From: Candidatus Brocadia sp.
GTDB taxonomy: Bacteria; Planctomycetota; Brocadiia; Brocadiales; Brocadiaceae
NCBI GenBank assembly: GCA_021650915.1
Contig: CP091279.1
Coordinates: 1,050,001 to 1,082,000 of the forward strand
Direction: 5' to 3'
DNA: 32,000 nt
The stretch's first letter is position 1; every line of letters starts with the position of its first letter. This document shows positions 2,642 to 32,000 of this stretch, one piece after another. The notes below the pieces were generated by a model, which was not told the DNA's origin, made no database searches, and saw only the letters and a list, made by a program, of their open reading frames with translations. A program made the position numbers and the translations under genes.

Positions 2642-4074
2642 TATCATTACTTTGTTAAAAATTTAGTAACGTTGTCAAGTGGAGACCTGAGAAAAGTCCT
2701 CCAATGTATAGTTGTCACGCATCAAAGCCGTTGTAGTAATAGGCAAGCCGAATTTTGGTAACGTTCAGCGCCCCGGCAACACTCCATTTGCTCACATTCA
2801 CCCGCAGGTTAACCGTACGTATGACGCGCTCTACATTACTTGTCGTTCTGCCATTGAGCCTCTTTTCTATCGCCGTAAACATATCAGGCCTGGCATTCTC
2901 AAGATAAGACGCGGTATGAGCATATCCCTTCGACAAACAATACTGAATCACCTCTTCCAATCGTTTCCTCTTGGACTCTATCATTTTCTCGATGGTCTTC
3001 TGACAATCAACCAATGACCGTATCGCACAGACATCCATAAGCTCCGACATTACCTCCAGCCATTCTTTCCCCTTGCTCTTGACCCCATCCTGCCACAATA
3101 CATACTTTGCCTGATACGGAATATGCCACAAACATCTCTGAACAAGCACCTTGACCTTACCTTTCAAACTATCCAAAATAGAGGTGTCTCCATCGGTTGT
3201 CAAAAGAAACTGGGAAAACTTCCTGAACACCTTAATACTCTTACCAAAAAGCTTTTCCCAACTGCCGTTGTAATTCCCTATGTCAAGCCCTGCCACCCTC
3301 ACCCCTCCACCTCTCTTATATTGCACAAAGACCTTGAGTTCCTTGCCTCGTTTGGCTATCCCCTTAATCCCTACCCCTGTCCCGTCTGCTTCTCCCAAGG
3401 GAAGTCCCTTCTCGTCGAGTTGAAAATCTATCTCTGCTGCCGTCTTTTGTACCGATTTCCCTATCGTCATCTTGTCTACGGTCCAGCCAAACATCGACAC
3501 GATTTTTTTCGCCACCCGGTAGGTCGTTAACGACCCTACCAGACCAAGCCTCCGATACGTCTCCGGTGGTATTCGCTTCATCCGCTCCATCCCGAGAAGC
3601 TTTCGCGTTATATACATCTTATGACCGCACCTCTTGCACTGCACCTGCAACTGCTCTAATCTCACCCACTGAAAGACCGTCAGTATCCTCGTCTCTTTTC
3701 CATGCCTCGTCTTCCAGATAAACCCCTTGTCATTCCCACATTCGTCGCAGCAAAATGGCTTCCGGGATTGCGCCATCGCACTCTCACCAAAACCAACCAC
3801 GATCTTCTGAATAAAATCCCTTAATATCTCCGGCAGTATCTTGCAAAATGCCTTGAGAATCGACTCCAGGCTGCCGTCCTTTAATTCAACCCGAATTTGA
3901 CAACCAAATTCTACTGTGATACTCTCTGTGCATAGGGTTGCTCCCATATAGCCCTCCTTTTCTTTATGGTTTAGTTTCTTGTATCAAAACTATTTTTTAC
4001 CATATTTGGAGGGCTTTTTCTTTAACCAAGTCTCTCTTTTTCTACTCTACCAAAGTTTTAACAAAGTAATGATA
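2642..4074 (-). mobile_element. Intact insertion sequence (about 1.43 kb) with 19-bp perfect terminal inverted repeats
   Basis: tatcattactttgttaaaa at 2642-2660 is the exact reverse complement of 4056-4074. A single 410-aa transposase ORF fills the interior. I saw no unambiguous target-site duplication. Confidence 0.8.
2715..3947 (-). CDS. Transposase, family uncertain (architecture resembles ISKra4 / ISLre2 / ISH6-type DDE enzymes)
   Basis: 410-aa ORF bracketed by the inverted repeats. It has N-terminal Cys pairs (CCDECG ... CKRCG) and the C-terminal motifs RCLWHIPYQ and TTSNVERVIRTVNLRV. The family assignment is from memory and has not been searched. Confidence 0.75.
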   Translation of the reverse strand: MGATLCTESITVEFGCQIRVELKDGSLESILKAFCKILPEILRDFIQKIVVGFGESAMAQSRKPFCCDECGNDKGFIWKTRHGKETRILTVFQWVRLEQLQVQCKRCGHKMYITRKLLGMERMKRIPPETYRRLGLVGSLTTYRVAKKIVSMFGWTVDKMTIGKSVQKTAAEIDFQLDEKGLPLGEADGTGVGIKGIAKRGKELKVFVQYKRGGGVRVAGLDIGNYNGSWEKLFGKSIKVFRKFSQFLLTTDGDTSILDSLKGKVKVLVQRCLWHIPYQAKYVLWQDGVKSKGKEWLEVMSELMDVCAIRSLVDCQKTIEKMIESKRKRLEEVIQYCLSKGYAHTASYLENARPDMFTAIEKRLNGRTTSNVERVIRTVNLRVNVSKWSVAGALNVTKIRLAYYYNGFDA

Positions 4075-9729: not shown

Positions 9730-10722
9730 TTATTCTATTTTTTTCAATTCCTCTTCAACAACTGATACTGGCAAGGGCAAATAACCATCTTTTACAATCA
9801 GTTCCTGCCCCTCTTTGCTCAGGATAAATTTTACAAATTCCTTAACCAAGGGATCAAGCGGTTGACCAGGCTTTTTATTAATATATACATAGAGAAACCG
9901 TGCCAGTGGGTAAGAACCGTTCATAACATTCTTCATGTCGGCTTCTTTATATGGTTTTCCTTCCATAAAGGAAAGGGGAACGGCGCGAATGCCGGATGTC
10001 TGATAGCCAATGGCGCTGTACCCCATGGCGTACCGGTCTTCGGTTGCGCCCTGCACAACAGAGGCAGAACCTGGTTGCTCCTTTACGGTATTCTTGAAAT
10101 CCCCCTTATACAGGGCATGTTCCTTAAAATAACCATAGGTGCCGGAGGCAGAATTACGCCCGTACAGGCTTATTGGTTTGGCCGCCCAATCTCCCGTTAA
10201 GCCAAGCTGTCCCCATGTCGTAATATCCGTCTTGTATCCACCTTTACGAGTCTTTGAAAAGATAGCGTCGACCTGAGGCATGCTTAAACCCTTCAGCGGG
10301 TTATCCTTGTTTACATACACGGCAAGTGCATCCAGGGATGTTCTGATTGCTGTCGGTTTATAGCCGTATTTCTTATCAAAGGCGTCAATTTCTGTCGGCT
10401 TCATAGTCCTGCTCATGGGTCCTATCTGTGCTGTGCCTGAGATTAAGGCGGGCGGTGCGGTTGTAGAGCCCTTGCCTTCTATCTGCACATTCACATTCGG
10501 ATACGCCTTGTTAAACCCCTCGGCCCAGTAAGTCATGAGGTTATTCATGGTGTCAGAACCGATGCTGTTGAGATTCCCAGAAACACCACCCACTTTGACA
10601 TAAGGTTTTATCTGTTCAGGAACCACAACAGCTCCGCCTGCGGTAGTCAATCCCATCATACTAAAACTGAAAACCGCTATTGAAAACCATGCCCTTTTTG
10701 CCATAGACTTTTTTCCTTTCAT
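9730..10722 (-). CDS. pstS: Phosphate-binding protein PstS
   Basis: 330 aa with a signal peptide. PstS-like motifs include GSDTMNNL, ASGTYGYF and the PBP fold pattern. It sits directly upstream of pstC. Confidence 0.9.
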   Translation of the reverse strand: MKGKKSMAKRAWFSIAVFSFSMMGLTTAGGAVVVPEQIKPYVKVGGVSGNLNSIGSDTMNNLMTYWAEGFNKAYPNVNVQIEGKGSTTAPPALISGTAQIGPMSRTMKPTEIDAFDKKYGYKPTAIRTSLDALAVYVNKDNPLKGLSMPQVDAIFSKTRKGGYKTDITTWGQLGLTGDWAAKPISLYGRNSASGTYGYFKEHALYKGDFKNTVKEQPGSASVVQGATEDRYAMGYSAIGYQTSGIRAVPLSFMEGKPYKEADMKNVMNGSYPLARFLYVYINKKPGQPLDPLVKEFVKFILSKEGQELIVKDGYLPLPVSVVEEELKKIE

Positions 10723-11193: not shown

Positions 11194-12588
11194 TTAAAAT
11201 ATGATCTGATATTGCAATCTCACCTGGTTTTCGCTTCCGCTCTGTTCTCTACCCCGTTCGTCTGAGTTCTCATAGTGTCCAACATCTGCCTGTAGTTTAG
11301 AGCGATGAACCCCGGGACGGAAGTAATAGTTTATACCCCCTGAGTATTCCCTTCCGATGTCATCAGATACGTCTTTATCTCGATCAAGGTAGGAATAGCG
11401 GGCTGCAACCTCCAGCCGTTTAGGTATTACAAAATAGCCTGCCTGGCTGAAAAATCCGTTGGAATCAAATGAATCACCACCGTGTTCCGGATCCGCACTC
11501 CTCATAAAATACTCGTTGTGCCATGAGAAACCACGATATTTCATGCTCAGTTCAAGAACCCCCTGGAGGCCATCGGTATCTTCAAGCTTTTCATCCCTTT
11601 CCTTTGGATTAACCACAACGGACGCAGCAACTGATGCCTTGAATTTTTCTGTAAACTTTATATCTGTTTCGTCAACGGTATCATATTTCCCAAACGGATT
11701 ATATCTCACATTAAACACGTACATAAGTTCGTTGTCCAGGTTATCTTCTGAGCCTCTGTCTTCATCATCTTCTCCTGCCCCCTGGAACATTGCTGCATGG
11801 TATTCAAGGTGTCCGTCAAAGGGCTTTCCATAAATATCAAAGCCATAGTCGCGGTCCTGATCAAATTCTTCACTGGTAATGGCTCTGTCCTGGAAGAGGA
11901 GTTTTGCAGAGGTTGACATCCTTTGCTGGTTAAAGGGCACTTTGAAATAGCCGAGCTTCGCATTTAATTCTGACATTGGAGTCCAATATACATAAAAATC
12001 CCTTACGCCAACGTCAAAACTATCCCCGTCAAATTCGACATAATAGTGCGTCATTTTGCTGTATATATTCCCTCCAAAACAGAGCCTTGCCCGGCGGACA
12101 TCCATATTGTTGGTATCATCTCTCCCAACATCCTCATTCCTATCTTTATAGGTATACCGGAATTGCATTCTCAAGCCTATACCCAGCGAATAATTATCAT
12201 CTGCTGATTTAAAGCCGATAGAAAATTTTTCCTCATCAGGGGTATAAAGGGTGGTCATTGCAGGCATGCCGAGCGCCATCTTTTTTCGCGCCTCGTCTGT
12301 GGATAGGTAGTCTTCGATCTCATGTTTAATCTCTTCCCTTGTAACCGGTGGTTTTTCGTCAGTTAATGCCTCCACGCGCCTTTTTAAGGCCTGTATCTGT
12401 TCCTGCTGCTTTTGAAATGCCTCCTCCATCTGTTTTAACTGCCATTGCAAATAATCCCGCTCGCTTCCGGATATCTCTTCTGTTTGTGCCGTTTGCTGGG
12501 CAAAGACACCAGGTAACATACTACCGGCAAATACGTCACCAATCACCAATGCCGACAATACTACTAACCTACGCCATTTCCTCCCCAT
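11194..12588 (-). CDS. Phosphate-selective porin O/P family outer-membrane protein with an N-terminal coiled coil
   Basis: 464 aa with a signal peptide and a Q/E-rich coiled coil. The beta-barrel body ends in an aromatic residue (QYQIIF). Motifs RMQFRYTY and RRARLCFGGN are typical of the OprO/OprP family. It lies upstream of pstS on the same strand. Confidence 0.8.
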   Translation of the reverse strand: MGRKWRRLVVLSALVIGDVFAGSMLPGVFAQQTAQTEEISGSERDYLQWQLKQMEEAFQKQQEQIQALKRRVEALTDEKPPVTREEIKHEIEDYLSTDEARKKMALGMPAMTTLYTPDEEKFSIGFKSADDNYSLGIGLRMQFRYTYKDRNEDVGRDDTNNMDVRRARLCFGGNIYSKMTHYYVEFDGDSFDVGVRDFYVYWTPMSELNAKLGYFKVPFNQQRMSTSAKLLFQDRAITSEEFDQDRDYGFDIYGKPFDGHLEYHAAMFQGAGEDDEDRGSEDNLDNELMYVFNVRYNPFGKYDTVDETDIKFTEKFKASVAASVVVNPKERDEKLEDTDGLQGVLELSMKYRGFSWHNEYFMRSADPEHGGDSFDSNGFFSQAGYFVIPKRLEVAARYSYLDRDKDVSDDIGREYSGGINYYFRPGVHRSKLQADVGHYENSDERGREQSGSENQVRLQYQIIF

Positions 12589-13327: not shown

Positions 13328-14262
13328 ATAGGGGTAGGGAAGGCTTTCGCCTCCCCTCCCTCCGAACCATACAGGCGGATCTCCCGCATACGGCTCTCCA
13401 GTCAGTGGTTACCCCTTCGGGATTGACCGTTGAAAATATAAATTGCGGATACGTGAACAATTCATACCTCATAGCGCGGCACAGCCGCAACCAAATTTCC
13501 TTTATGAAAGCGGGGAGATTGCTTCGGAAAAGGCCCTCGCAATGACAGCGACCATGCACTTTGATGGCACACGGCACGTTGCCATTGCGAGTGAAGCGAA
13601 GCAATCTTTCACTCATAAAAAACGGTACCTCCTGAAAGGGGTTTGTGAAAAAACTTACAAAAAAAGAAGTTTTTATACAGTAATACTATAATGATGACAT
13701 CGATTCTCATCATTCACCTTATGCAAGCCGTCAACAGGTAGTCCGCTATAAGCCAGGTTCAAATCCGTTTCTACGGATTTCTCCAACTTGTTTAGGCATT
13801 TCTGCCACTCACCTTGGTTTGTCTTCCCAGCTTACCCACTTCATACCTCCACCTTCCTGCCTCCCTTCGCTCCACATCCATTACGATGCTTCTTCGCTCT
13901 TATGAAGTCTCTGACTCCTGACTTTGTCACTCCCTCTGTCAGGTATCCCTGATTCATGCACCTTGTCTTCCTGCCATTCCGTCTCCAACCACCCATTGCT
14001 CCCTATCATCGCTTTATCACGCTACCCCTCAGCTTGATAGACTTCCTTCTTTTTCCAAAAAGGTCTGGGCTTCACCACTCTCTAGCAGGCTCGCCGTTAC
14101 AACAGGCCGAATCGAGTTCGTCATTCTACGGACTAGCTTTTCACCTCCCGTTGCTCCCCACCCCATCTCACGATGATGCAGTTACGGTCGGTTACAGGGT
14201 TGGAAAGCGTTTTCCCTGAAGGGGACTTTCACCCCTCTGACATTGTGCACTCTCAGGCGCAC
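13328..14262 (-). ncRNA. Group II intron RNA, ORF-less (about 935 nt)
   Basis: All read on the minus strand. The 5' end is GTGCGCC (14262-14256). Domain V is GAGCCGTATGCGGGAGATCCGCCTGTATGGTTCGG (13396-13362) and includes the AGC triad. Domain VI is a 12-bp stem with a GAAA tetraloop and a bulged A (13335) 7 nt before a 3'-terminal TAT (ending at 13328). No reverse-transcriptase ORF is present. Confidence 0.85.
13470..13690 (+). repeat. 221-bp intergenic repeat element, family A, copy 1 (inside intron domain IV)
   Basis: Its ends are catagcgcggcacagccgcaacc and gtaatactata. An internal long inverted repeat pairs agattgcttcgg..ctcgcaatg with cattgcgag..gaagcaatct. By eye it differs at only about a dozen positions from the reverse complement of 22025-22246. 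Confidence 0.85.
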
Positions 14263-26929: not shown

Positions 26930-27211
26930 ATGGCCCGGGCAATAAAAGAAAGAATTGGTTCAGTAGATGAACCGCTAGAGAAGAAGCTCTGGAAGGCGGC
27001 AGATAAGTTGCGGAAGAATATGGATGCCGCTGAATACAAGCACGTTGTATTAGGCTTGATTTTTTTGAAATACATTTCTGATGCCTTTGAAGAACTCTAT
27101 GAAAAGCTAAAAGAAGGTAAGGGTGACTACGAAGGTGCTGACCCGGAGGACAAAAATGAATACACAGCCGAAAAGGTGTTTTATGTGCCACCCTCTGCAC
27201 GATGGAAATAG
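26930..27211 (+). CDS. hsdM: Type I R-M methyltransferase HsdM, N-terminal fragment ending at an in-frame TAG
   Basis: HsdM_N signature [40 protein letters not shown]. It is in the same frame as 27263-28975 and is separated from the continuing homology only by the TAG at 27209-27211. Confidence 0.85.
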
Positions 27212-27262
27212 TTACAAGGCAGGGCAAAGCTCCCAACCATTGGCAAGGATATCGACGATGCA

Positions 27263-28975
27263 ATGGATGCCATCGAAAAAGATAATCCGTCACTCAAAGG
27301 GGTGTTGCCGAAGGTGTTTGCGCAGGAGAAGTTAGACAAGCAGAGTTTAGGCGGTTTGATTGACCTTGTGGGTAGCGCCACATTGGGCACAAAGGTGGCT
27401 CAAAGCAAAGATGTATTGGGCAAGGTGTATGAATATTTTTTAGGTGAATTTGCCCTGGCGGAAGGCAAAAAAGGCGGACAGTTTTATACCCCTGGTAGTG
27501 TGGTAAAACTCTTGGTTGAAATGCTTGAGCCTTATGAGGGCCGCGTGTTTGATCCCTGCTGTGGTTCTGGCGGTATGTTTGTCCAGAGTGAAAAATTTGT
27601 GGAGGCCCACCGGGATTACTACAAAAAGCACAACGGGAAGAAACTGAACATAAACCCAAAAGACCGTATCTCTATTTACGGACAGGAAAGCAACCAGACC
27701 ACCTGGCGTTTGGCCAAGACAAACCTGGCTATCCGTGGTATTGACAGCAGCAACGTAAAGTGGAACAACGAAGGCTCTTTTCTCAATGATATGCACAAAG
27801 ATCTGAAGGCCGATTACATCATTGCCAATCCACCCTTTAACGATAGCGATTGGAGCGGTGAGTTACTTCGTGACGATGCCCGGTGGAGCGTGCTGGGACA
27901 GAAATTACCACCACCCCCAAATAATGCCAACTATGCCTGGATACAACACTTCCTCTATCACCTGGCGCCTTCCGGCCAGGCAGGTTTTGTACTGGCGAAG
28001 GGTTCGCTGACCACCAAGACCAGCAATGAAGGCGATATACGAAAGGCAATGGTGGAAAACGATTTAATTGACTGCATTGTAAACCTGCCTACCAAGCTAT
28101 TTCTCAATACACAAATACCAGCCTGTTTGTGGTTTATTTGCCGGAATAAGTCCGGCAAACCCTCATCCGGCGCCACGCACCACCTTCTTCCAGTGGGAGA
28201 AGGGCATTATCGGGGAGGATTTGATTTCTCAGGACAATTGGAATTGGCAAGAATGCTTCGGAATAATGCCACGCCGGCGGAGCAGCTTTTTTGGGAGTTA
28301 GTGCGCGATCGCCGTTTTCTGGGATTAAAATTCAGACGTCAGCACCAAATCGGCGCCTACATTGCGGATTTTTACTGTGATGAAAAGAAACTGGTAGTAG
28401 AACTGGATGGCGGAGTACATAACGAGCCCACAAGGATAAAGATCGATCATAAGCGAGATGCTTATATGAAATCGCTTGGCATAACCGTGTTTCGTTTAAG
28501 TAATGAGCAATTAATGCGTAATCCAGAAAAAGTATTAACTTCAATTGCTTCTGCTGTTTCCCCTTCTCCTTTTGGGAGAGGGGAAGGGGTGAGGGTGAAC
28601 GAATCTCGCAACCGAAAGGGAGAGATGCTGTTTATAGATGCCCGCAATATGGGTTTTTTAATAAACCGCAAAAACCGCGAGTTGTCTGATGATGATATTG
28701 CCCTGATTGCAACTACCTATCACAACTGGCGTACTGGCGAGGGCAAGTACAAGGATGTGCAGGGCTTCTGCAAATCGGCAACACTGAATGAAGTAAAAGC
28801 TTTAAACTATGTATTGACACCAGGCAGGTATATTGGCTTGCCCGATGATGAAGATGATTTTAATTATGAGGAAAGAATTATAAAATTGAAAGCTGAGTTA
28901 CACCAACAAATGCGGGATGAAATAAAGTTAAATGAAATAATCAATAGGAATCTTGAAAAAATTCGATTGCAGTAA
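27263..28975 (+). CDS. hsdM: Type I R-M methyltransferase HsdM, main body, carrying an in-frame DUF559 insertion
   Basis: AdoMet motif VFDPCCGSGGMFV and catalytic NPPF (IIANPPFNDSDW). HsdM homology actually resumes right after the TAG (LQGRAKLPTIGKDIDDAMDAIEKDNPSLKGVLPK). A block of about 154 codons is inserted between CRNK and RKGEMLFIDARN. Confidence 0.88.
   Translation: MDAIEKDNPSLKGVLPKVFAQEKLDKQSLGGLIDLVGSATLGTKVAQSKDVLGKVYEYFLGEFALAEGKKGGQFYTPGSVVKLLVEMLEPYEGRVFDPCCGSGGMFVQSEKFVEAHRDYYKKHNGKKLNINPKDRISIYGQESNQTTWRLAKTNLAIRGIDSSNVKWNNEGSFLNDMHKDLKADYIIANPPFNDSDWSGELLRDDARWSVLGQKLPPPPNNANYAWIQHFLYHLAPSGQAGFVLAKGSLTTKTSNEGDIRKAMVENDLIDCIVNLPTKLFLNTQIPACLWFICRNKSGKPSSGATHHLLPVGEGHYRGGFDFSGQLELARMLRNNATPAEQLFWELVRDRRFLGLKFRRQHQIGAYIADFYCDEKKLVVELDGGVHNEPTRIKIDHKRDAYMKSLGITVFRLSNEQLMRNPEKVLTSIASAVSPSPFGRGEGVRVNESRNRKGEMLFIDARNMGFLINRKNRELSDDDIALIATTYHNWRTGEGKYKDVQGFCKSATLNEVKALNYVLTPGRYIGLPDDEDDFNYEERIIKLKAELHQQMRDEIKLNEIINRNLEKIRLQ
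28151..28612 (+). other. DUF559 (Vsr/PD-(D/E)xK-like endonuclease-fold) cassette inserted in frame within hsdM
   Basis: The core ARMLRNNATPAEQLFWELVRDRRFLGLKFRRQHQIGAYIADFYCDEKKLVVELDGGVHN...DAYMKSLGITVFRLSNEQL matches DUF559 as I know it. It is flanked by GC-rich hairpins built on ggagaaggg (28196-28204) and cccttctcc (28561-28569). Confidence 0.75.
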
Positions 28976-28994: not shown

Positions 28995-29516
28995 ATGATT
29001 ACACAGCAACAGGCGGATTATCTCGTTGCTCTGCCAAAACATATCATTGAAGATGATGCGCTGTTAGAAAGAAAATTGTATGCTCCCTCGTTCCCTATTG
29101 ACGACCGAATGTATTCGGTCTCAAAAGCAGACGATGAGTTCTCCTTTTTTCTGGAAATAACGCAAAGCTCCAAAAAAAATCTGAAATTGACTTTGCACTT
29201 TCAAGAAGAAGATGCCAGTATAGGTTTGTTAAGAGTTGATTTCAACGGAAGGCATCCTAATCCTGAAATTGCAAATGATAAAGTGCCTGACATTTTTAGG
29301 TCTTTTGCCGGTCAATGGCTTGAAGAAAGCCATATTCATTATTTTGTAGAAGGGTATAAACCGTTGGCATGGGCTATCCCGTTAAAAGCAGATAATACAT
29401 TTTCTGTTAAGGATTTTACCAATATAAGTGAATTTGGCGATATCTTTCGGGTATTTGGGAATAAAATCAATCTCCAAACTGTTTTAGAAATTTGCATTCA
29501 AAGGCAACTTATATGA
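28995..29516 (+). CDS. Hypothetical protein (173 aa), no family recognised
   Basis: The ORF starts 19 nt after the hsdM stop. Its stop overlaps the next start (ATGA). Motifs are RVDFNGRHPNPE and ESHIHYFVEGY. Confidence 0.65.
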   Translation: MITQQQADYLVALPKHIIEDDALLERKLYAPSFPIDDRMYSVSKADDEFSFFLEITQSSKKNLKLTLHFQEEDASIGLLRVDFNGRHPNPEIANDKVPDIFRSFAGQWLEESHIHYFVEGYKPLAWAIPLKADNTFSVKDFTNISEFGDIFRVFGNKINLQTVLEICIQRQLI

Positions 29517-30298
29517 CCTGGATTGACAGACTTATAGATGATTACTACCGTTTTCTCAGGCAAAAAACGGTAATTACCGAATTGCCATCAAGTGGGTGGA
29601 TTGAAATAAGCACCCCGTTTACGGATGTGTTTAATGACACCATTGAAATTTATGCAAAAAAGAGTAACGGAAAAATTATTTTATCGGATGATGGACAAAC
29701 ATTAAAAAATCTTGAATTAAGCGGGGTTGAAATATCACGTTCTCAAAACAGGAAAGAAATGTTAGAAAGAATATTGTTGAACTATGGAGTACGACTCGAA
29801 GATAAAGAATTGCTTGCGGAAGCTACAGAAAGCACTTTTCCTCAAAAAAAACTTAATCTGCTTGCCGCCATTTCCGAAGCAAATGATTTATACGTACTGG
29901 CGAAACATACTGTGGCAGGTCTTTTCCGGGAAGACGTAAAAGCATATCTTGACGAACAGGGGTTAGTATATACGCCTTACTTCCTTTCAAAAGGAAGCAC
30001 GGGACTGGAATTTACCTTTGACTTTCAAATTGCTTACCGGCAAACTGAACTTTTAATTAAGGCATTTAACACAATAAATAAACTTAATCTTCCTCATTTT
30101 CTCTTCACATGGGATGATGTTAAGCAAGTAAGAGAAAAACAAACCGAAAAAAAGGTAATTGGTCTGGCAGTAATCAATAACGAAGACCGTGAAGTGAAAG
30201 ATGAATACCTTGAAGCCTTGCAAAACAAGGGTGCCGAGTTTATTTTATGGACGGAAAGAAATAGGCCAGAGAACATCAAAAAGCTGAAGGCGGCTTAA
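29513..30298 (+). CDS. DUF1828/DUF1829-like two-domain protein (261 aa), function unknown
   Basis: The N-terminus WIEISTPFTDVFNDTIEIYAKK and the overall architecture recall DUF1828+DUF1829; this is from memory and has not been searched. I chose the ATG at 29513, which is coupled to the upstream stop. The ORF track starts at 29492. Confidence 0.65.
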   Translation: MTWIDRLIDDYYRFLRQKTVITELPSSGWIEISTPFTDVFNDTIEIYAKKSNGKIILSDDGQTLKNLELSGVEISRSQNRKEMLERILLNYGVRLEDKELLAEATESTFPQKKLNLLAAISEANDLYVLAKHTVAGLFREDVKAYLDEQGLVYTPYFLSKGSTGLEFTFDFQIAYRQTELLIKAFNTINKLNLPHFLFTWDDVKQVREKQTEKKVIGLAVINNEDREVKDEYLEALQNKGAEFILWTERNRPENIKKLKAA

Positions 30299-30299
30299 A

Positions 30300-31478
30300 A
30301 TGTCTGAGTGGAAGGAATATAAATTTTCAGATTTTGTTCATATCAATCCTACCTTAAAGTTGAGTATAGGAGAAACATATTCTTTTGTTGAAATGAAAGA
30401 CCTTAGTAACGGTCATAAATTCTGCACTCCGAGCATAGAAAGAAAACTAACAAGCGGTTCAAAATTTCAGGAAGGTGATACATTATTTGCTCGAATAACT
30501 CCGTGTTTAGAGAATGGGAAAATATGTCAAGTACGTGGTTTAAAGAATGGTGTAGGTTTTGGCTCAACTGAATTTTTTGTTTTTCGCGGTAAGCATGATG
30601 TTTCCGATAATGAATTTGTCTTTTATTTGTCTCGATGGGATGAAGTGCGGTCGTTTGCTGAAATGAATTTTGACGGAACATCTGGACGTCAAAGAGTTCC
30701 AAAAGAATCACTTGACAATCTTTTTTTAAAATTACCCCCTCTCTCCGAACAAAAATCCATCGCCTCCATCCTCAGCAGCTTAGATGACAAGATAGACCTG
30801 CTGCACCGTCAGAACAAAACCTTAGAGGCATTGGCGGAGACGTTGTTCAGGCAGTGGTTTGTGGAGGAAAATGAATCTTTGGAAATCGCAAAATTAAAAG
30901 ACTTTTGTAATCATCTAAAGGCAAATGTCAATCCTTTAAAACAGCCTGACAAAATATTCCATCATTACAGCATACCTGCATTTGATGAAGGACAAGAACC
31001 TGAAATTACTCCAGGAAGAGAAATAAGAAGTAACAAGTATCAAATAAAGGAAGGTACAATTCTGATTTCAAAATTAAACCCTCGCTTCCCTCGTGTATGG
31101 CCGATTCTCGAAAATATCGGAAAAAATCATTCAATCTGTTCTACGGAATTTCAAGTTGTCGAACCAAAAGATTCAAAATACTTTGGATTTATCCTTTGCT
31201 TTCTAAAATCAAAAGCAGTAAAAGATGAATTAATTCAATCAACAAGTGGCACAAGTGGCAGTCATCAAAGAGTTAGTCCTGAAGATATTTTTAACTTAAC
31301 TATTCCTGTTACAAATGACGATAAGTTAAATGAATTCAATCTTATTACTAATCCATATTGGGATAAGATTAAAAATAACAAACGCCAAATCCGCACCCTC
31401 ATCCGTTTACGTGATACGCTCTTGCCCAAGCTGATGAACAGAGAGGTACGGGTTAAAGAGTTGGATTTACTTACTTAG
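30300..31478 (+). CDS. hsdS: Type I R-M specificity subunit HsdS
   Basis: 392 aa with two target-recognition domains. They are separated by the conserved helix LPPLSEQKSIASILSSLDDKIDLLHRQNKTLEALAETLFRQWFVE and followed by the C-terminal helix IRTLIRLRDTLLPKLM. Confidence 0.9.
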   Translation: MSEWKEYKFSDFVHINPTLKLSIGETYSFVEMKDLSNGHKFCTPSIERKLTSGSKFQEGDTLFARITPCLENGKICQVRGLKNGVGFGSTEFFVFRGKHDVSDNEFVFYLSRWDEVRSFAEMNFDGTSGRQRVPKESLDNLFLKLPPLSEQKSIASILSSLDDKIDLLHRQNKTLEALAETLFRQWFVEENESLEIAKLKDFCNHLKANVNPLKQPDKIFHHYSIPAFDEGQEPEITPGREIRSNKYQIKEGTILISKLNPRFPRVWPILENIGKNHSICSTEFQVVEPKDSKYFGFILCFLKSKAVKDELIQSTSGTSGSHQRVSPEDIFNLTIPVTNDDKLNEFNLITNPYWDKIKNNKRQIRTLIRLRDTLLPKLMNREVRVKELDLLT

Positions 31479-31522: not shown

Positions 31523-32000
31523 ATGACAAACGATAGCAAGACTTACGAAATTTTCAAAAGCGGTAGCGCTTGGATACGTGCGGACTTTCATCTTCATACG
31601 AAGGCAGACAAAGAGTTCAAATATGACGGTAAAGAGAATGAGTTTGTAAATGCTTATGTTCAGCAATTGAGAGATGCTGGAATTTCCATTGGCGCTATTA
31701 CGAATCATAATAAATTTGATCTTGGCGAGTTTAAAGCCCTCAGGACTAAAGCACATAAAGAAGAAATTTTCCTTCTGCCAGGAATCGAGCTTTCAGTAAA
31801 GGATGGTTCAAATGGACTCCACACACTGGTTATTTTTAGTGATGAGTGGGTAATCAATCAAGAGAACACAGACTATATCAATAGTTTTCTGAGTGTGGCT
31901 TTTGCCGGTCAATCGAATTATGAGAATGAAAATGCCCGCACAAATCACGACCTGTTGGAGACCATCCGGGAGCTGGATAAATTCTCCAAGGAGTATTTTC
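31523..32000 (+). CDS. PHP-domain protein, N-terminal part (continues beyond the window); possibly the PHP+ATPase class seen in defence islands
   Basis: ATG at 31523 with GGAGAAG 3 nt upstream, and an open frame to the window end. The PHP signature is WIRADFHLHTKAD ... GAITNHN ... LPGIELSVKDGSNGLHTLVIF. Confidence 0.75.
   Translation, partial: MTNDSKTYEIFKSGSAWIRADFHLHTKADKEFKYDGKENEFVNAYVQQLRDAGISIGAITNHNKFDLGEFKALRTKAHKEEIFLLPGIELSVKDGSNGLHTLVIFSDEWVINQENTDYINSFLSVAFAGQSNYENENARTNHDLLETIRELDKFSKEYF

Follow-up and report, generated by a model that had tools for sequence, protein, structure and literature searches.

The hsdM gene of a Candidatus Brocadia genome, which encodes the methyltransferase subunit of a type I restriction-modification (R-M) system and lies in the 32,000-nucleotide stretch of contig CP091279.1 analyzed here (hereafter the window), is interrupted in frame by a cassette encoding a DUF559 domain, a predicted Vsr-like nuclease, between what are recognizable from their sequence as two inverted copies of the BoxC/PIT/TM repeat. 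On balance, and with moderate confidence, we regard the cassette as a selfish, homing-type, non-splicing element, one in which a DUF559 nuclease set between inverted BoxC palindromes spreads among R-M genes. The cassette family is widespread and apparently undescribed; our literature search returned no paper describing these cassettes, and nothing relevant on DUF559 (PF04480) in R-M genes.

The open frame at 27263-28975 follows HsdM sequence to ...PACLWFICRNK, continues unbroken through the insert (SGKPSSGATHH...GVRVNES), and resumes HsdM sequence at RNRKGEMLFIDARNMG. Pfam matches both HsdM_N (PF12161) and N6_Mtase (PF02384) in the host gene, the latter match being split in two; the host translation holds the S-adenosylmethionine motif DPCCGSGGM and the NPPF motif IIANPPFN, and it matches the solved HsdM structure 3KHK in sequence (E=3.8e-121). 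A first-pass annotation, made by a model from the letters of the window, had proposed a DUF559 cassette in frame within HsdM, and the continuous frame, the split N6_Mtase match and the DUF559 match given below confirm it. The in-frame block that it outlined also stands, although its span of 28151-28612 (about 154 codons) is refined to 28151-28606 (152 codons) by DNA alignment of an empty Brocadiaceae allele (L029) with two filled alleles (L001 and L002). Protein alignment agrees with these boundaries, and in the alignment with L029 the insertion is clean at the DNA level and in frame.

DUF559 is present in four of the 120 closest HsdM proteins (P0121, P0137, P0152 and P0194). About 110 of the 120 are empty alleles, 78-89% identical, which run straight from ...CLWFLRRNK into QKRKGEILFIDARNMG and belong to Brocadiaceae, Nitrospirota, Nitrospinota, Bacteroidota and further phyla. 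By sequence alignment the insert falls between the adjacent residues 450 and 451 of 3KHK, in a loop whose length varies naturally among HsdM alleles; an AlphaFold model of the 570-residue HsdM (16-row alignment) had a confidence (pLDDT) of 41 and was discarded, so that the position is taken from the 3KHK alignment. The cassette is thereby confirmed as a discrete insertion, which we read as laterally acquired. It is not an ancestral segment shared by all close homologs, the outcome that the first-pass annotation had named as fatal to its own idea of a discrete, possibly mobile module in a variable HsdM loop; the uninterrupted alleles that it had anticipated exist in number. At the 5' boundary a junction hairpin spans host and insert, and L001 and L002 carry a compensatory pair in it (TTCGCCGGA / TCCGGCGAA). 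The motif CGCAAC is repeated on both sides of the hsdM junction; the pattern is ambiguous, and we claim no target-site duplication.

By profile, by sequence match to a solved structure and by model, the insert is an intact DUF559/Vsr-like domain and a predicted nuclease, in keeping with the fold that had been suggested for it. The Pfam match to DUF559 (E=3.9e-34, 117 bits against a cut-off of 20.6) covers profile positions 5-107 of 109, and the insert matches the DUF559 crystal structure PDB 3HRL in sequence with E=1.6e-18. All family-invariant residues are present (R62, D73, E84, G87, H90 and D99 in insert numbering), and the acidic/histidine set D...E-x-D-G-x-x-H is kept as D73, E84, D86, G87 and H90, which show little or no variation across 90 aligned relatives. 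In an AlphaFold2 model of the insert (90-row alignment), core residues 24-136 reach pLDDT 93-98 and both flanks have low confidence, as expected of linkers. A Foldseek search with this model places 3HRL first (TM-score 0.89), followed by the homing endonuclease I-Bth0305I (3R3P; TM-score 0.75, E=1.4e-4), with Vsr itself (1VSR, TM-score 0.53) and the nuclease domains of AbaSI/PvuRts1I at lower ranks; no match of the insert to 3R3P was found at the sequence level. We also looked for a start codon and ribosome-binding site belonging to the nuclease itself, and the cassettes compared have no conserved in-frame start between the left hairpin and the core. Most likely, translation yields an unspliced HsdM in which the nuclease domain forms an additional lobe on a surface loop.

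Table 1. Features of the cassette, its host gene and neighboring genes in the window (positions are those of the window), with the E. coli interval discussed in the text.
Feature	Position	Strand	Details
Whole inserted cassette	28151..28606	+	456 bp, 152 codons, +/- 2 codons; absent from empty alleles
DUF559 / Vsr-like PD-(D/E)xK nuclease core (predicted)	28241..28555	+	Pfam, 3HRL match, invariant residues, AlphaFold2, Foldseek
Conserved N-terminal extension of this DUF559 subfamily	28205..28240	+	HYRGGFDFSGQL; directly after left hairpin; in 21 aligned cassettes
Left BoxC/TM-type repeat	28159..28204	-	outer arm ACCCTCATCC (28159-28168), 14-nt spacer, hairpin CCTTCTTCC-AGT-GGGAGAAGG (28183-28204); translated ..PSSGATHHLLPVGEG
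Right BoxC/TM-type repeat	28560..28596	+	CCCCTTCTCC-TTTT-GGGAGAGGGG-AA-GGGGTGAGGGT; translated SPSPFGRGEGVRV
Junction hairpin spanning host-insert boundary	28137..28159	+	TTTGCCGGA / TCCGGCAAA
Empty hsdM site			CGCAACAAG / CAAAAACGC, insertion point at the slash
Junction peptide of filled HsdM			NKSGKPSSGATHH
hsdM part 5' of insertion	26930..28150	+	HsdM_N (E=4.9e-21), N6_Mtase catalytic domain (E=1.6e-100), Pfam; ends ...PACLWFICRNK
hsdM part 3' of insertion	28607..28975	+	RNRKGEMLFIDARNMG... to stop
In-frame TAG stop (TGG -> TAG)	27209..27211	+	in HsdM_N domain; divides window hsdM into 93-aa and 570-aa open reading frames
DUF6978 gene, between hsdM and hsdS	28995..29516	+	Pfam labels on sibling contigs; also in empty locus L029
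DUF1828/DUF1829 gene	29513..30298	+	sibling contigs and empty locus L029
hsdS specificity subunit	30300..31478	+	Pfam Methylase_S on sibling contigs; weak NCBIfam S-subunit matches
ycjD-fabI interval, E. coli K-12 (L150)	1351040-1351406		remnant duplicate DUF559 C-terminus ETVLENIRQGLN, then TMECO no. 9

BoxC repeats at the cassette ends and in shells

The first-pass annotation had noticed an inverted 9-mer flanking the block and a hairpin at each boundary (28183-28203 and 28560-28589). The hairpins are where it placed them, with arms at 28183-28192/28194-28203 on the left and 28560-28570/28579-28589 on the right, and as single strands the cassette ends fold better than shuffled sequences (z=-4.5 left, z=-2.6 right). 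The 9-mer is better described as part of two inverted BoxC/TM copies than as an anonymous 9-mer. By our estimate, about 0.4 exact inverted 9-mers are expected by chance within 460 bp, so that it is not significant alone; it carries weight because the palindrome recurs at both ends of most related cassettes and because it matches a published repeat consensus. A longer inverted repeat (22 nt, 77%) joins 28183-28204 to 28561-28582, and since both ends are palindromic in themselves, they repeat each other in direct as well as in inverted orientation.

The published repeat is the BoxC/PIT/TM "intrastrand triplex motif", for which the E. coli (TMECO) consensus is CCCTCTCCC TGT GGGAGAGGG CCGG GGTGAGGG (Holder et al. 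2015, NAR 43:10126, PMC4666352), used here as the pattern CCCTCTCCC-N3-GGGAGAGGG-N4-GGTGAGGG. It has been reported in more than 260 genomes; its E. coli copies are always intergenic, without an associated mobility gene, and are hotspots of rearrangement, and only with the E. coli consensus has triplex formation been demonstrated in vitro (PMC4666352). All three blocks, namely the pyrimidine block CCCTCTCCC, the purine block GGGAGAGGG and the third strand GGTGAGGG, are present at both ends of the window cassette with a few mismatches, the left copy having the longer spacer, and the common CCCTCGCCC variant occurs in L001 and L002. In nearly every cassette the palindrome CCCTCTCCC-N3-GGGAGAGGG stands directly before a conserved HYRGGFDFSG and again past the core, with outer arms reading CCCTCACCC on the left and GGGTGAGGG on the right in related cassettes, so that the third-strand arms face outward. 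Because the G+C-rich palindromes translate to peptides rich in Pro, Ser, Gly, Glu and Arg (..PLPxGEG.. and ..SPSPxGRGxGVRV..), these peptides would act as flexible linkers. What differs from E. coli is the setting: the three-block sequence is the same, and shells in related genes (see below) match it exactly, but here the repeat brackets a nuclease open reading frame (ORF) and is translated in frame inside genes. An Rfam search of the hairpins and shells gave sub-threshold noise only. Separately, the flank repeats of some cassettes are multiplied in tandem, to as many as five units (L007, L014, L022 and P0014).

Exactly where other alleles hold the full cassette, many alleles carry 8-20 extra codons (PSPxGRGxGGEG or PLPxGEG), which we call shells. 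A shell is a single BoxC unit with both outer arms that folds very stably; it corresponds to a cassette from which the ORF and one of the hairpin copies have been taken away. Such a product would be expected if the two 22-nt direct repeats recombined, the alternative being independent insertion of a solo repeat. Solo BoxC/TM copies also lie in frame in genuine genes of many kinds, including polyketide synthase/non-ribosomal peptide synthetase (PKS/NRPS), KdpC and FtsJ genes, and none of the families listed is an R-M family; the R-M bias described below therefore belongs to the nuclease-bearing cassette and not to the repeat. We counted a solo repeat as embedded only if the host was Pfam-backed, since long open frames arise by chance in high-G+C contigs and make unbacked cases unreliable there. 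Individual in-frame solo repeats were seen at L030, L031, L047, L051 and L107, in ThuA/DUF7133, PKS/NRPS, FtsJ/TlyA-like and HemN-like genes, the latter two identified by flanking peptides.

The association of DUF559 with BoxC is seen in E. coli as well. There, ycjD, annotated as a DUF559 protein and the sole one in the stretch examined, ends ...RRSPSP with its stop codon inside a BoxC-like hairpin, and within 168 bp on its 3' side, on the same strand, come first a remnant DUF559 C-terminus and then TMECO no. 9. Of 5426 complete E. coli genomes, 3346 have the ycjD region and 38% lack it; O157:H7 is uninformative on the boundaries of the element because the whole neighborhood differs there.

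Distribution and evolution of the cassette family

The closest public DUF559 proteins are often ORFs fused to fragments of R-M proteins, and we found related cassettes at 24 genome loci in many phyla. Eight of these occupy the same HsdM site (L001-3, L005-7, L014-15), five a second HsdM site after TYHAWR (L008, L009, L011-13) and one a third (L020). HsdR is entered inside its HSDR_N nuclease domain (L019), before helicase motif I (L010) and inside its ATPase domain (L016-18), and one cassette lies in an HrpA helicase (L022). HsdM and HsdR each have at least three insertion sites in the family. The frame is open into the host on both sides at about 15 of the 24 loci, the hosts being full-length, at 690-708 aa for HsdM and 1245-1258 aa for HsdR, and throughout the family the cassette is in the sense orientation and in frame with its host. 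Further DUF559 copies with the same flanks, which the first-pass annotation had thought worth seeking in the same genome and in unrelated genes, thus occur in frame in R-M and other genes of other genomes, though none turned up in about 50 kb of Brocadia sequence.

Searching 1.84 billion representative proteins gave 24,699 relatives at E<=1e-3. Among the best 150 of these, 70 are embedded in proteins of at least 300 aa, whose host domains are Methylase_S (32), N6_Mtase (11), Eco57I (7), MmeI_Mtase (5) and HsdR domains (about nine). About 80% of embedded relatives sit in R-M proteins (HsdM, HsdR, HsdS and type IIG enzymes), and a few lie in other hosts, namely aminoacyl-tRNA synthetases, helicases, the CCA-adding enzyme and kinases. 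In a published enrichment table, "DUF559 domain-containing protein" is 14-fold enriched among predicted targets of programmed inversion (PMC9881135), which may be caused by DUF559 cassettes inside hsdS and other R-M genes. Two individual cases deserve mention on their own account. One Sedimentisphaerales metagenome-assembled genome holds, on two contigs, near-identical stand-alone cassettes (L012, at 2905-3447, and L013), each a 180-aa ORF with its own ATG that retains about 35 codons of hsdM 5' flank and nine codons of 3' flank, and the 1214-aa type IIG protein P0246 contains two DUF559 cassettes.

The cassette core is under purifying selection: its ratio of nonsynonymous to synonymous change (dN/dS) is 0.06-0.18, also between copies that sit in broken hsdM fragments. 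Synonymous divergence in the cassette is 2-4 times below that of the host gene (0.11 versus 0.45, Fisher 7e-10; 0.23 versus 0.45, 4e-5; 0.25 versus 0.40, 0.015), and the low tract reaches about 25 codons into the 3' flank. These values are suggestive of a cassette younger than the alleles that host it, with co-converted flanks and recent lateral spread. In a tree of 21 aligned cassettes the grouping is by insertion site with two exceptions, which suggest jumps to new sites, and one copy (L004) is degenerate. Two properties of homing elements are therefore seen together, namely presence/absence polymorphism at one site among close alleles and an element apparently younger than its host, and the selection, divergence, tree and decay taken as a whole would fit the cycle of invasion, maintenance, decay and loss followed by homing endonuclease genes.

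Selfish element, recruited domain or passenger

In the account that we favor, the cassette would move between alleles of one gene and occasionally jump to a new site, selection on the nuclease would keep it active, and it would finally decay to a solo BoxC shell or be lost. We infer that spread would be driven by the nuclease, cutting empty or shell-bearing targets, and that BoxC is its partner. A broader proposal, that DUF559 proteins are dedicated nuclease partners of BoxC/PIT/TM repeats and that the two make up a previously unrecognized bacterial mobile element that propagates as non-splicing protein insertions in frame, with a preference for R-M genes, and drops solo repeats along the way, is one that we offer tentatively and would at present bet against.

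Several observations weigh against a nuclease-driven selfish element. In the literature that we searched, no DUF559 protein has a reported nuclease activity, target site or homing event. When metagenomic BoxC/TM sites were scanned with the right-end pattern, DUF559 stood next to the repeat at one of 80 loci sampled among the matches listed, and the repeat therefore persists without a neighboring nuclease. The presence of cassettes at many different sites is unexplained by a single sequence-specific homing enzyme and would require diversified lineages or structure-specific recognition. The low synonymous divergence could come in part from constraint at the nucleotide level or from ordinary recombination between alleles, and the R-M bias of about 80% is also compatible with a role in R-M complexes. 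Finally, no second cassette or shell was found in about 50 kb of Brocadia sequence, window included, and no relatives of the cassette were found in viral contigs. (A 22-nt blastn-short match at 3294-3315 of the window is not a hairpin and looks like chance.)

There are two other accounts, each of which we consider unlikely. If the DUF559 lobe had been recruited as a nicking or cleavage module of M2S, R2M2S or type IIG enzymes that improves defense, its patchy distribution arising from modular exchange of R-M genes, then its strong purifying selection, its nuclease fold, the mostly intact host ORFs and its concentration in R-M proteins, covering all three type I subunits and type IIG enzymes while solo repeats lie in unrelated genes, would all be explained. 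Such a role is difficult to square, however, with the lack of the cassette in most near-identical HsdM alleles, with its presence in HrpA, aminoacyl-tRNA synthetases, the CCA-adding enzyme and kinases, with the commonness of shells and degenerate copies, with intact cassettes in broken hsdM fragments and stand-alone ORFs (L011-L013), and with a cassette that appears younger than its host alleles; HsdR, moreover, already has a nuclease domain of its own. The evidence leans toward a selfish cassette, with a function less probable. A comparably improbable scenario makes the nuclease a passive passenger, a DUF559 gene (with a repair role, for example) trapped between two self-spreading, recombination-prone BoxC/TM repeats and carried between R-M alleles by homologous recombination. 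The 79 of 80 sampled sites without DUF559, the in-frame solo repeats in many genes, and the rearrangement hotspots at E. coli BoxC/TM loci (PMC4666352) speak for it, but the architecture is too regular for chance trapping, with one hairpin directly before HYRGGFDFSG, a second past the core, arms facing outward, and an orientation that is always sense and in frame. The repeats accompany nearly every examined member of this DUF559 subfamily, and the link recurs at E. coli ycjD.

Two further possibilities are far less probable. An intein or intron, removed from protein or mRNA to leave an uninterrupted HsdM, is effectively refuted: an in-frame insertion into the gene of a DNA enzyme, a fold related to homing endonucleases and a Ser as first inserted residue are what one might expect of an intein, but no Hint or intein Pfam model matches at E<=0.01, the C-terminal junction (..NES, then RN) lacks His-Asn and has no Cys, Ser or Thr at +1, Rfam gives no relevant intron match even at E<=1 within 28050-28700, and the frame is continuous and under purifying selection. 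A chimeric assembly or sequencing artifact, conceivable in a metagenome-type genome, is refuted for the cassette, because the sibling protein P0121 (Candidatus Brocadia sp., 681 aa, annotated as a hypothetical protein), cassette included, is encoded identically on 13 contigs drawn from a Logan run as well as several independent assemblies, and related filled alleles exist in other phyla; the in-frame TAG at 27209 is a separate matter, and could be an error.

A selfish cassette of this kind would have known relatives in lifestyle. Like Vsr-like (EDxHD) homing endonucleases such as I-Bth0305I, it has their nuclease fold, enters conserved genes for nucleic-acid enzymes and spreads laterally. Those endonucleases are established elements, with free-standing endonuclease genes known in fractured genes (Dassa et al. 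2009, PMC2677866), but they have a start codon of their own and are housed in group I introns, in inteins or between the halves of split inteins, whereas the cassette is translated within its host protein between repeat-encoded linkers. Like inteins, it inserts in frame at conserved sites, is polymorphic for presence or absence and decays to a remnant that has lost the nuclease, a shell being comparable to a mini-intein, but it has no Hint domain or splice-junction residues, and the insert is presumably retained in the mature protein. Perhaps closest in habit is ShiLan, a non-splicing, stop-free, homing-like insertion, within the DNA methylase gene of a phage, that is predicted to loop out of its host protein (Arsenault et al. 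2025, PMC11855218); both are non-splicing and stop-free in a DNA methylase gene, but ShiLan encodes an HNH endonuclease in another frame, whereas the cassette has a Vsr-like nuclease in the host frame and palindromic ends. REP/REPIN sequences and their RAYT proteins have the same layout, one protein gene between inverted palindromic repeats with solo copies far commoner (here about 1 site in 80 has the gene), but RAYT proteins are tyrosine transposases of the HUH type, and REPs lie outside genes and are species-specific, whereas the cassette encodes a PD-(D/E)xK nuclease and its repeat is kept across phyla and tolerated in ORFs. There is, finally, a likeness to the Rickettsia palindromic elements, reportedly short palindromic selfish DNA lying in frame in protein-coding genes without destroying them; these are said to have no ORF and to be restricted to Rickettsia.

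For DUF559, a very large family, a structure (3HRL) has been solved and no role is known, and the consistent physical link of BoxC to this one nuclease family provides a concrete, testable candidate for mobility. If the proposed partnership is true, it would explain where a repeat family known since the early 1990s came from and how it spread, as well as what a large DUF family does, and in-frame, non-splicing nuclease cassettes would represent a new lifestyle of selfish DNA in genes, between inteins and palindromic in-frame elements. Annotation of R-M systems is affected in any case, many metagenomic ORFs labeled "DUF559" or "very-short-patch-repair endonuclease" being pieces of R-M genes, and protein engineers may take an interest in repeat-encoded linkers that hold a folded domain in a surface loop.

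The host gene and its surroundings

In the 5' part of the window hsdM, the first-pass annotation overlooked an in-frame TAG (27209-27211). The sibling protein P0121 differs from the window copy at four residues and has W (TGG) at this codon; an uninterrupted HsdM frame is accordingly found on the 13 sibling contigs and not in the window copy. The TAG is either a strain variant or a sequencing error, and if it is real the window copy is probably a pseudogene. Because of this premature stop, the HsdM fusion protein of the window may not reach full length.

Between hsdM and hsdS lie the DUF6978 and DUF1828/DUF1829 genes, which seem to be fixed components of this type I system, since both are kept in the empty locus L029. 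The first-pass annotation had found it notable that no hsdR is visible, and hsdR is indeed absent from the window and from the sibling contigs. This carries little weight: the window stops 520 bp past hsdS, the sibling contigs break about 4 kb past it, and in a related empty locus hsdR lies about 4.6 kb downstream of hsdS. Downstream of hsdS (31523-32000 in the window; 14594-18381 in L025) are genes for an 883-aa SMC_N/AAA_21-like protein and a 385-aa AlbA_2/HATPase_c_4 protein, possibly another defense module, and all sibling contigs stop just past this pair.

Elsewhere in the window, a group II intron domain V/VI (13328-13398, minus strand; Rfam 51.5 bits) adjoins a 464-aa ORF at 11194-12588 (minus strand), which may be the reverse transcriptase of the intron. 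About 12 kb separates a PBP-like gene (9730-10722) from murD (22658) in the window, and 837 bp separates them in a sibling assembly. Among the other HsdM alleles, P0124 and P0125 carry C-terminal extensions (..APFDSAQGA....ERSRNDR) that resemble the in-frame translation of another family of palindromic repeats.

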